A DNA stretch of 45,466 nt from a virus (Duplodnaviria; Heunggongvirae; Uroviricota; Caudoviricetes). This document shows, one piece after another, positions 23,990 to 24,050 of the stretch. Under the pieces are notes generated by a model. That model ran no database searches. It was not told the DNA's origin and saw only the letters and a program-made list of their open reading frames with translations. The position numbers and the translations under genes are program-made. Where the stretch lies: IMG/VR virus record IMGVR_UViG_2609459834_000005; one strand, written 5' to 3'. Position 1 is the first letter of the stretch. The number at the start of each line of letters is the position of its first letter.

Positions 23990-24050
23990 TAGCCTTTTTC
24001 CGCGACGCTCCCGCCCCGTGGCAGGGGCCCCCACCGGGAGGACCCGACAG
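23990..24050 (-). other. candidate cos site (cosN-like GC-rich core)
   Basis: Minus strand GGGGCGGGAGCGTCGCGGAAAAAGGC resembles lambda left end GGGCGGCGACCTCGCGGGTTTTCGC; ~150-200 bp upstream of Nu1 start. Confidence 0.4.

Follow-up and report, generated by a model that had tools for sequence, protein, structure and literature searches.

An island of GC-rich DNA located 196 nt upstream of the small-terminase start codon very probably constitutes the cosQ-cosN-cosB packaging site of a complete lambda-like E. coli prophage of the cdtI/Tritos/mEp460 group. The island lies in a stretch of 45,466 nucleotides, which was analysed as a whole and is called the window. The cos type is not novel, because deposited phage genomes are already cut at this point. 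Cos positions are given on the minus strand, with +1 at window position 24016 and position n at 24017-n; a slash marks a nick or a record break.

The sequence-only reading had reported a 26-mer in a GC-rich patch of the minus strand. We found this sequence, GGGGCGGGAGCGTCGCGGAAAAAGGC, exactly at 24017..23992; GC content was 0.85 at 24000-24039 and 0.78 at 24020-24059. The DNA around the island had been described as AT-rich. This is true only toward terS, where GC drops to 0.15 at 23900-23959, that is, within 60-100 bp; on the other side it is about 0.4-0.5. The 26-mer had also been likened to the lambda left cohesive end with its flank. This likeness stands, except that the first G (24017) is the counterpart of lambda base -1, with which the right end terminates, and is thus outside the overhang; the predicted cohesive end begins at 24016. 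On the minus strand, the order is GGCTGTCAGGCTGTCGGGTCCTCCCGGTGGGGGCCCCTGCCACG, GGGCGGGAGCGT and CGCGGAAAAAGGCTAGTTTTTGCA, with the following features:

24039..24045, minus strand: cosQ-equivalent heptamer GGGTCCT at cos positions -29..-23, packaging-termination signal, identical to lambda bp 48473-48479
24018..24038, minus strand: cosQ-cosN spacer CCCGGTGGGGGCCCCTGCCAC, constant in length among E. coli relatives (22 nt with the final G counted)
24003..24018, minus strand: cosN, CG/GGGCGGGAGCGT/CG, with predicted nicks at 24017/24016 (minus) and 24005/24004 (plus)
24016..24005, minus strand: predicted 12-nt 5' overhang GGGCGGGAGCGT, from the cdtI/Tritos record ends and the lambda comparison
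23981..24004 (+13..+36), minus strand: conserved cosN-proximal flank CGCGGAAAAAGGCTAGTTTTTGCA, at a position equivalent to lambda I2
23957..23976 (+41..+60), minus strand: R3-position element of cosB, CATGGCGGCGGCAGCATGTT, proposed primary TerS binding site
23941..23953 (+64..+76), minus strand: predicted I1-equivalent IHF site TAATTTATTGATA, a perfect match to YAANNNNTTGATW
23821..23940 (+77..+196), minus strand: distal AT-rich cosB and terS leader, including a GGAG Shine-Dalgarno sequence at +186..+189
23293..23820, minus strand: terS, 175 aa, DUF1441 / phrog_141, probable start ATG at 23820
21185..23284, minus strand: terL, 699 aa (maximal ORF), gpA-family large terminase with Pfam domains GpA_ATPase and GpA_nuclease

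The composite motif GGGTCCT-N(14-24)-ACGGGGCGG-N6-CGCGG occurred once in the 45-kb window, at 24045..24000 on the minus strand, with 0.00 occurrences expected from 100 shuffles. The resemblance of the GC-rich island to lambda cos is thus real and not due to chance.

The comparison with lambda was made on the lambda record itself. The heptamer GGGTCCT at lambda bp 48473-48479, which we take to be lambda cosQ (the coordinates reportedly go back to Wieczorek and Feiss, 2001), is matched 7/7 in the window, where it is located at -29..-23 as compared to -30..-24 in lambda; the spacer between cosQ and the nick is 22 nt in the window and 23 nt in lambda. Lambda cos reads ACGGGTCCTTTCCGGTGATCCGACAGGTTACG/GGGCGGCGACCT/CGCGGGTTTTCGCTA, and the window cos aligned to it reads TCGGGTCCTCCCGGTGGGGGCCCCTGCCACG/GGGCGGGAGCGT/CGCGGAAAAAGGCTA. 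Global alignment of positions -35..+45, the check that the earlier reading had proposed, showed homology over cosQ, cosN and the adjacent flank (50/84 identities, 60%, z=5.6; 0/500 shuffles as good). From +45 to +196 there was no similarity to lambda (z=-1.1). The claimed lambda likeness therefore holds for cosQ, cosN and the flank but ends at about +45, and the cosB of the window is unrelated to that of lambda. Of the 12 overhang bases, 8 are identical to lambda, including the entire left half GGGCGG (6/6), and differences are confined to positions 7, 8, 9 and 11. The CG dinucleotides flanking both nicks are identical too, so that the window has the same CG/GGGCGG....../CG context and the same 12-bp spacing between conserved flanks as lambda. 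Partial two-fold symmetry about the 6/7 centre amounts to 8/16 bp or 12/22 bp in the window cosN and to 10/16 or 10/22 in lambda.

In the cos model of the Feiss laboratory, lambda cos is arranged as cosQ-cosN-I2-cosB (PMC4669245, PMC9026076), and I2 is needed for termination (PMC4669245). The definition of a lambda-like cos includes 12-base 5'-extended cohesive ends on virion DNA; conservation among phages with such ends extends to the 7-bp cosQ, to the left overhang half and to the CG dinucleotides on either side, and bp 7-12 commonly vary, at 9 and 12 in N15 and at 8, 9 and 11 in Gifsy-1 (Feiss et al. 2015, PMC4669245). By alignment, the window cosN fits this published pattern of natural variation exactly, with changes only in the freely varying half. 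As a control, the same search was applied to the record of the Salmonella phage Gifsy-1, which is listed among the phages with lambda-like cohesive ends (PMC4669245). It returned GGGCGGCAGCGT, with the published differences from lambda at 8, 9 and 11. This overhang matches that of the window at 11/12 bases (position 7 is C in Gifsy-1 and G in the window), and the GGGTCCT cosQ is the same. The two phages differ in the proteins: according to the record annotation, the head of Gifsy-1 is lambda-type and its Nu1 homolog is of the phage-21/lambda type, whereas the window has a TerS of the DUF1441 family and, like Gifsy-2, a fusion of the ClpP-protease and capsid genes.

The phages mEp213/LLS belong to the same terminase lineage as the window (DUF1441 TerS, about 41% identical). 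For their putative cos, GGGCGGCGCGCT, a paper by the Smith/Casjens group (PMC12315714) infers a 12-nt 5' overhang, with reference to Vahanian et al. 2017 and to M. Feiss. This overhang differs from that of the window at 7, 8, 9 and 10. The GGGTCCT-N22 nick layout is the same and an IHF-like site is present at +63, but cosB is different and shorter, and terS begins about 130 nt from the nick. In other relatives we noted deviations from the common layout. The VT1-Sakai prophage (Sp15, AP000400.1), upstream of H0025, has 11 instead of 12 nt between CACG and CGCGG and a cosQ spacer of 24 instead of 22 nt; by this comparison, the cosN of this Stx1 prophage may be altered or impaired. In Gifsy-2, Fels-1, Providencia PSTCR8lys and a Trabulsiella locus, all from non-E. 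coli hosts, AAAAGGTACTCC replaces GGGTCCT, which suggests a variant cosQ in the non-E. coli branch. Gifsy-2 and Trabulsiella are more divergent in their cosN-like sequences too.

A megablast search with 350 bp around the site revealed two phage records that break exactly there. The linear record of Tritos (OV696610) ends at query position 184, corresponding to window 24017, and the record of cdtI (AB285204/NC_009514) starts at query position 185, corresponding to window 24016. Both records begin with GGGCGGGAGCGTCGCGG and close with CTGCCACG (...CCACG), which places the record break at window 24017/24016, the position of the lambda N1 nick; the opening stretch common to both is GGGCGGGAGCGTCGCGGAAAAAGGC. 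These ends represent agreement between annotators and not proof of physical ends, and they could have been placed by analogy to lambda. The Tritos paper (PMC9928086) gives no account of the way in which the ends were established, and a literature search for the 12-mer overhang and its complement yielded nothing relevant. Among the 80 matches listed from IMG/VR (of at least 120 contigs carrying the site), none ended at the site, a result that is uninformative because most of these contigs are prophages.

Tritos is prophage 3 of E. coli LF82, which produces virions and forms plaques on MG1655 (PMC9928086). Its cos is identical to that of the window from -45 to +90, thus including cosQ and cosN as well as the initial 90 bp of cosB; five substitutions are located in distal cosB, at +91, +98, +119, +140 and +167. 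Upstream of cosQ, the octamer GGCTGTCA is present in two copies in the window and in three copies in Tritos. In the window, this tandem repeat (GGCTGTCA GGCTGTC) is located directly before GGGTCCT, at 24046-24060 on the minus strand, and represents a copy-number polymorphism.

The terminase genes had been described as intact and Nu1/A-like. Both are full length, and TerL is of the gpA family (Pfam GpA_ATPase PF05876, 4.2e-80; GpA_nuclease PF20454, 4.2e-86), with 24% identity to lambda gpA (E=1e-21, BLASTP). TerS, in contrast, is a DUF1441 protein (Pfam, 1.9e-44; no Phage_Nu1 hit) and apparently a remote homolog of Nu1 rather than a member of its family; the lambda small subunit is of the Phage_Nu1 type. 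TerS matched phrog_141 ('terminase small subunit') at 7.9e-65, and reciprocal cross-hits were obtained between the PHROGs: TerS hit phrog_57, that of Nu1, at 1e-09 (residues 18-158), and Nu1 hit phrog_141 at 5.6e-08. With hhalign, a profile of eight DUF1441 TerS proteins aligned through residues 12-57 to the winged-helix region of Nu1 (residues 2-48), at a low probability of 27.6%. BLASTP of TerS against Nu1 was not significant, NCBIfam had no model for either terminase subunit, and a PDB sequence search with TerS found nothing. On these profile comparisons, 'Nu1/A-like' appears right in function and by remote homology rather than in the sense of a shared family. Conservation is much stronger in the DNA signals (cosQ 7/7, nick context) than in the proteins that recognise them.

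The terS gene most likely starts at ATG 23820 (+197), which is preceded by a Shine-Dalgarno sequence in the arrangement GGAG-N7-ATG; lambda terS starts at +191. The longest terS ORF begins at ATG 23850, a codon that is CTG in 53 of 81 relatives. The annotated start corresponds to ATG 23832 in cdtI and to 23820 in Tritos.

Next to cosN, the window contains a cosB that differs in sequence from that of lambda. The complex cosB of lambda, 21, phi80 and Gifsy-1 has the order R3-I1-R2-R1, with three related R sequences, R2 being inverted relative to R3 and R1, and the IHF site I1 just after R3. R3 is located at bp 50-65 in lambda and at bp 48-60 in N15 (PMC9026076). In the window, this place is occupied by CATGGCGGCGGCAGCATGTT (+41..+60), the first segment that differs between TerS types, and we propose that this element is the primary TerS binding site. 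The IHF consensus YAANNNNTTGATW has two perfect matches in the window, of which one is at +64..+76, after the R3 position, as is the lambda IHF site at about +79. Two matches per window is a number expected by chance. Each of the seven cos types compared within the DUF1441-TerS lineage has an equally oriented match, with no more than one mismatch, that begins at +61..+64 (shuffle expectation 0.5-2% per site), and its position is kept although the flanking R3-position sequences differ. The other perfect match, TAACTATTTGATA, at 45020-45032 on the minus strand, is located just past the integrase gene near the prophage end and could be an att-arm IHF site.

No R3/R2/R1 triplet like that of lambda is evident in the window cosB: a repeat search in cosB revealed no convincing R2 or R1 and no copies of the +41..+60 element downstream of it. 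The sole repeat found is an AT-rich inverted repeat (78%; +55..72 with +152..169), which may be due to chance. In Fels-1 and PSTCR8lys, R-type triplets are apparent by eye. Distal cosB (+77..+196) is specific to the cdtI/Tritos TerS type and unrelated to lambda cosB.

Variation was analyzed in 82 loci carrying a TerS 99-100% identical to that of the window; as these loci are close kin, they show a mosaic boundary and do not prove selection. GGGTCCT and positions -4..+6 were invariant. Within cosN, one locus varied at position 7 and one at position 12; the spacer was polymorphic at -22, -19 and -12..-10. To the left of about -35, the DNA is hypervariable and mosaic, falling into several unrelated families, and it is conserved from GGGTCCT rightward. 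The cos of the window has no private mutation, one locus (L074) being identical to it over -45..+197, and the minority alleles that it carries in distal cosB, at +91, +98, +140 and +167, are present in other prophages too.

The +13..+36 flank is about 93-100% identical among phages with different cosB/terS types and is partly alignable to lambda. Phages of the mEp460 / phi458 / PhiR40_1 type share cosQ, cosN and this flank with the window (at least 25 nt identical), and their head and tail genes are about 95-97% identical. In these phages, however, cosB from +37, terS (about 42% protein identity) and approximately the first 100 nt of terL are swapped as one cassette. Compared to mEp460_ev081, identity is about 93% over -384..+36 and at background level between +37 and a point roughly 100 nt into terL, terS included, after which it rises again; by megablast, similarity resumes at window 23188, near terL codon 32. 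The initial ~100 nt (some 32 codons) of terL thus co-vary with terS and cosB. The mosaic cassette is sharply bounded in the comparison with LR597641.1, where window ~23188-23980 is unrelated to the mEp460-type sequence and the flanking DNA is 93-97% identical. Since cosB, terS and early terL are replaced together with respect to mEp460_ev081, the sequences suggest that cosB, terS and the N-terminal part of TerL that interacts with TerS are exchanged as a single specificity cassette.

Typing was performed on the 80 IMG/VR loci among the matches listed and the window itself. Loci with the exact 25-nt cosN and flank fell into at least four downstream cosB/terS types, with 47, 24 (the type of the window, window included), 9 and 1 members. 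This parallels lambda and phage 21, which have cosQ and cosN in common and differ in cosB/TerS specificity (PMC4669245). The 350-bp region was matched in 2106 of 5426 complete E. coli genomes, 673 of which cover at least 80% of the region, with up to 7 matching places per genome. A TerS 99% identical to that of the window is encoded on a 22.9-kb contig of a MAG labelled Veillonella parvula (JAGZPX010000007.1), which most likely reflects binning contamination.

The whole prophage extends from approximately 1306 to 45064 in the window and is collinear with Tritos, cdtI, mEp460, HannyBb and PhiR42_1. Leftward of cos are terS, terL, a small head-tail adaptor gene, a lambda-family portal gene and a fused ClpP-protease/major-capsid gene. 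Upstream of cos are the lysis cassette and the moron genes cspI, ynfN, gnsB, ybcV and ybcW. For all packaging, head and tail genes of Tritos, the window contains full-length single-segment counterparts that are 92-100% identical, with the exception of the neck protein Ne1 (79%). Identity to Tritos is 100% for TerS, 99.4% for TerL, 98.8% for the portal, 99.4% for the protease-capsid fusion and 96.7% for J; TerS of cdtI and Tritos is 99.5-100% identical to that of the window. The integrase, excisionase, Q, holin, endolysin and Rz-like genes likewise have their full length; differences from Tritos are confined to the modules for tail fibres, immunity and replication. The fusion of the ClpP-like prohead protease and the major capsid protein is encoded at 17496-19715 on the minus strand by one gene of 707-739 aa, which overlaps the 3' end of the portal gene; PMC12315714 cites the same arrangement for Gifsy-2.

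The suggestion that the prophage retains a functional packaging site is supported as far as retention is concerned: the cos is homologous to that of lambda, is located at the cdtI/Tritos record ends and is accompanied by full-length packaging, head and tail genes. That it would be functional is a reading of these sequences. Many E. coli lambdoid prophages are defective, and the site could be a cos by descent that is now an unused relic in a cryptic or non-inducible prophage. The four minority alleles of distal cosB (+91, +98, +140, +167) and the immunity, replication and tail-fibre regions that differ from Tritos would be in line with such decay. We consider it quite unlikely: the minority alleles occur in other prophages as well, and the entire cos is found unchanged in one further locus; plaque-forming Tritos has the same cosQ, cosN and flank; the packaging, head and tail genes have retained full length and 92-100% identity to Tritos, apart from Ne1; and the integrase, excisionase, Q and lysis genes are full length.

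Alternatively, the site could be a cos with a cut geometry unlike that of lambda, with offset nicks or another overhang length, made by a terminase distant from gpNu1/gpA. Since TerL is only 24% identical to gpA, the nick geometry is extrapolated from lambda; the lack of detectable BLASTP similarity between TerS and Nu1, the cosQ-nick spacer that is 1 bp shorter than in lambda and the 11 nt between CACG and CGCGG in the relative VT1-Sakai also speak for a deviating cut. Nevertheless, the CG/GGGCGG.../CG context and the partial two-fold symmetry about the 6/7 centre are preserved, two independent depositors set genome ends at the lambda-equivalent nick, and PMC12315714 infers a 12-nt 5' overhang for the sister phages mEp213/LLS. 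Thus, a deviating geometry is very improbable. The chance is close to nil that the island is a terminator, a promoter, a structured RNA or a small ORF resembling lambda cos by coincidence. A 51-aa ORF at 23943-24098 on the minus strand does cross cosQ and cosN, and several phage records (including PP925841.1 and LR597641.1) carry 'hypothetical proteins' over cos, none of them annotating cos. However, the composite cos motif is expected 0.00 times by chance, and the site is conserved as DNA across phages with different flanking genes. The ORFs over the site had no Pfam hits and are probably spurious gene calls. We found no terminator-like site; a single promoter-like match was below the shuffle expectation and outside the site. 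There was no Rfam match at E<=1, and folding was no better than that of shuffled sequences (z=+0.85). A non-cos reading is effectively refuted.

For the lambda-like cos, we infer where exactly the strands are nicked, how long the overhang is and which polarity it has, that TerS binds the R3-position element and IHF its site, and that the prophage is inducible. After induction and concatemer formation, dimers of the DUF1441-type TerS would bind cosB, with the GC-rich element at +41..+60 probably being the primary contact, and IHF would bend the DNA at +64..+76. This would anchor the gpA-family TerL on cosN. Nicking of the minus strand at 24017/24016 and of the plus strand at 24005/24004 by TerL would create 12-nt 5' cohesive ends, GGGCGGGAGCGT and its complement. 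Packaging would run leftward in window coordinates, through cosB and then terS, until the following cos of the concatemer is reached, where the terminating cut would be directed by cosQ (GGGTCCT) together with cosN and the +13..+36 flank.

The cosB and DUF1441 TerS of the cdtI/Tritos type might represent an uncharacterised 'semi-simple' packaging specificity, with one GC-rich R3-position element and an IHF site and without R2 and R1. At least three more specificities that circulate among the same E. coli have cosQ and cosN in common with it. Because termination in lambda-like phages is independent of cosB, co-resident prophages with the same cosQ and cosN could cross-terminate packaging. We regard this proposal as unlikely; if true, it would provide a route for packaging of hybrid or chromosomal DNA between prophages. 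The current understanding of DNA packaging is unchanged, as the site is of a known, ordinary kind. With this analysis, cos is annotated to the base in a prophage type that is very common in E. coli and whose site is left unannotated or under spurious ORFs in public records. This annotation can be used for setting phage genome coordinates, for assessing prophage integrity and for predicting co-resident prophages or satellites with a common terminase cut site.
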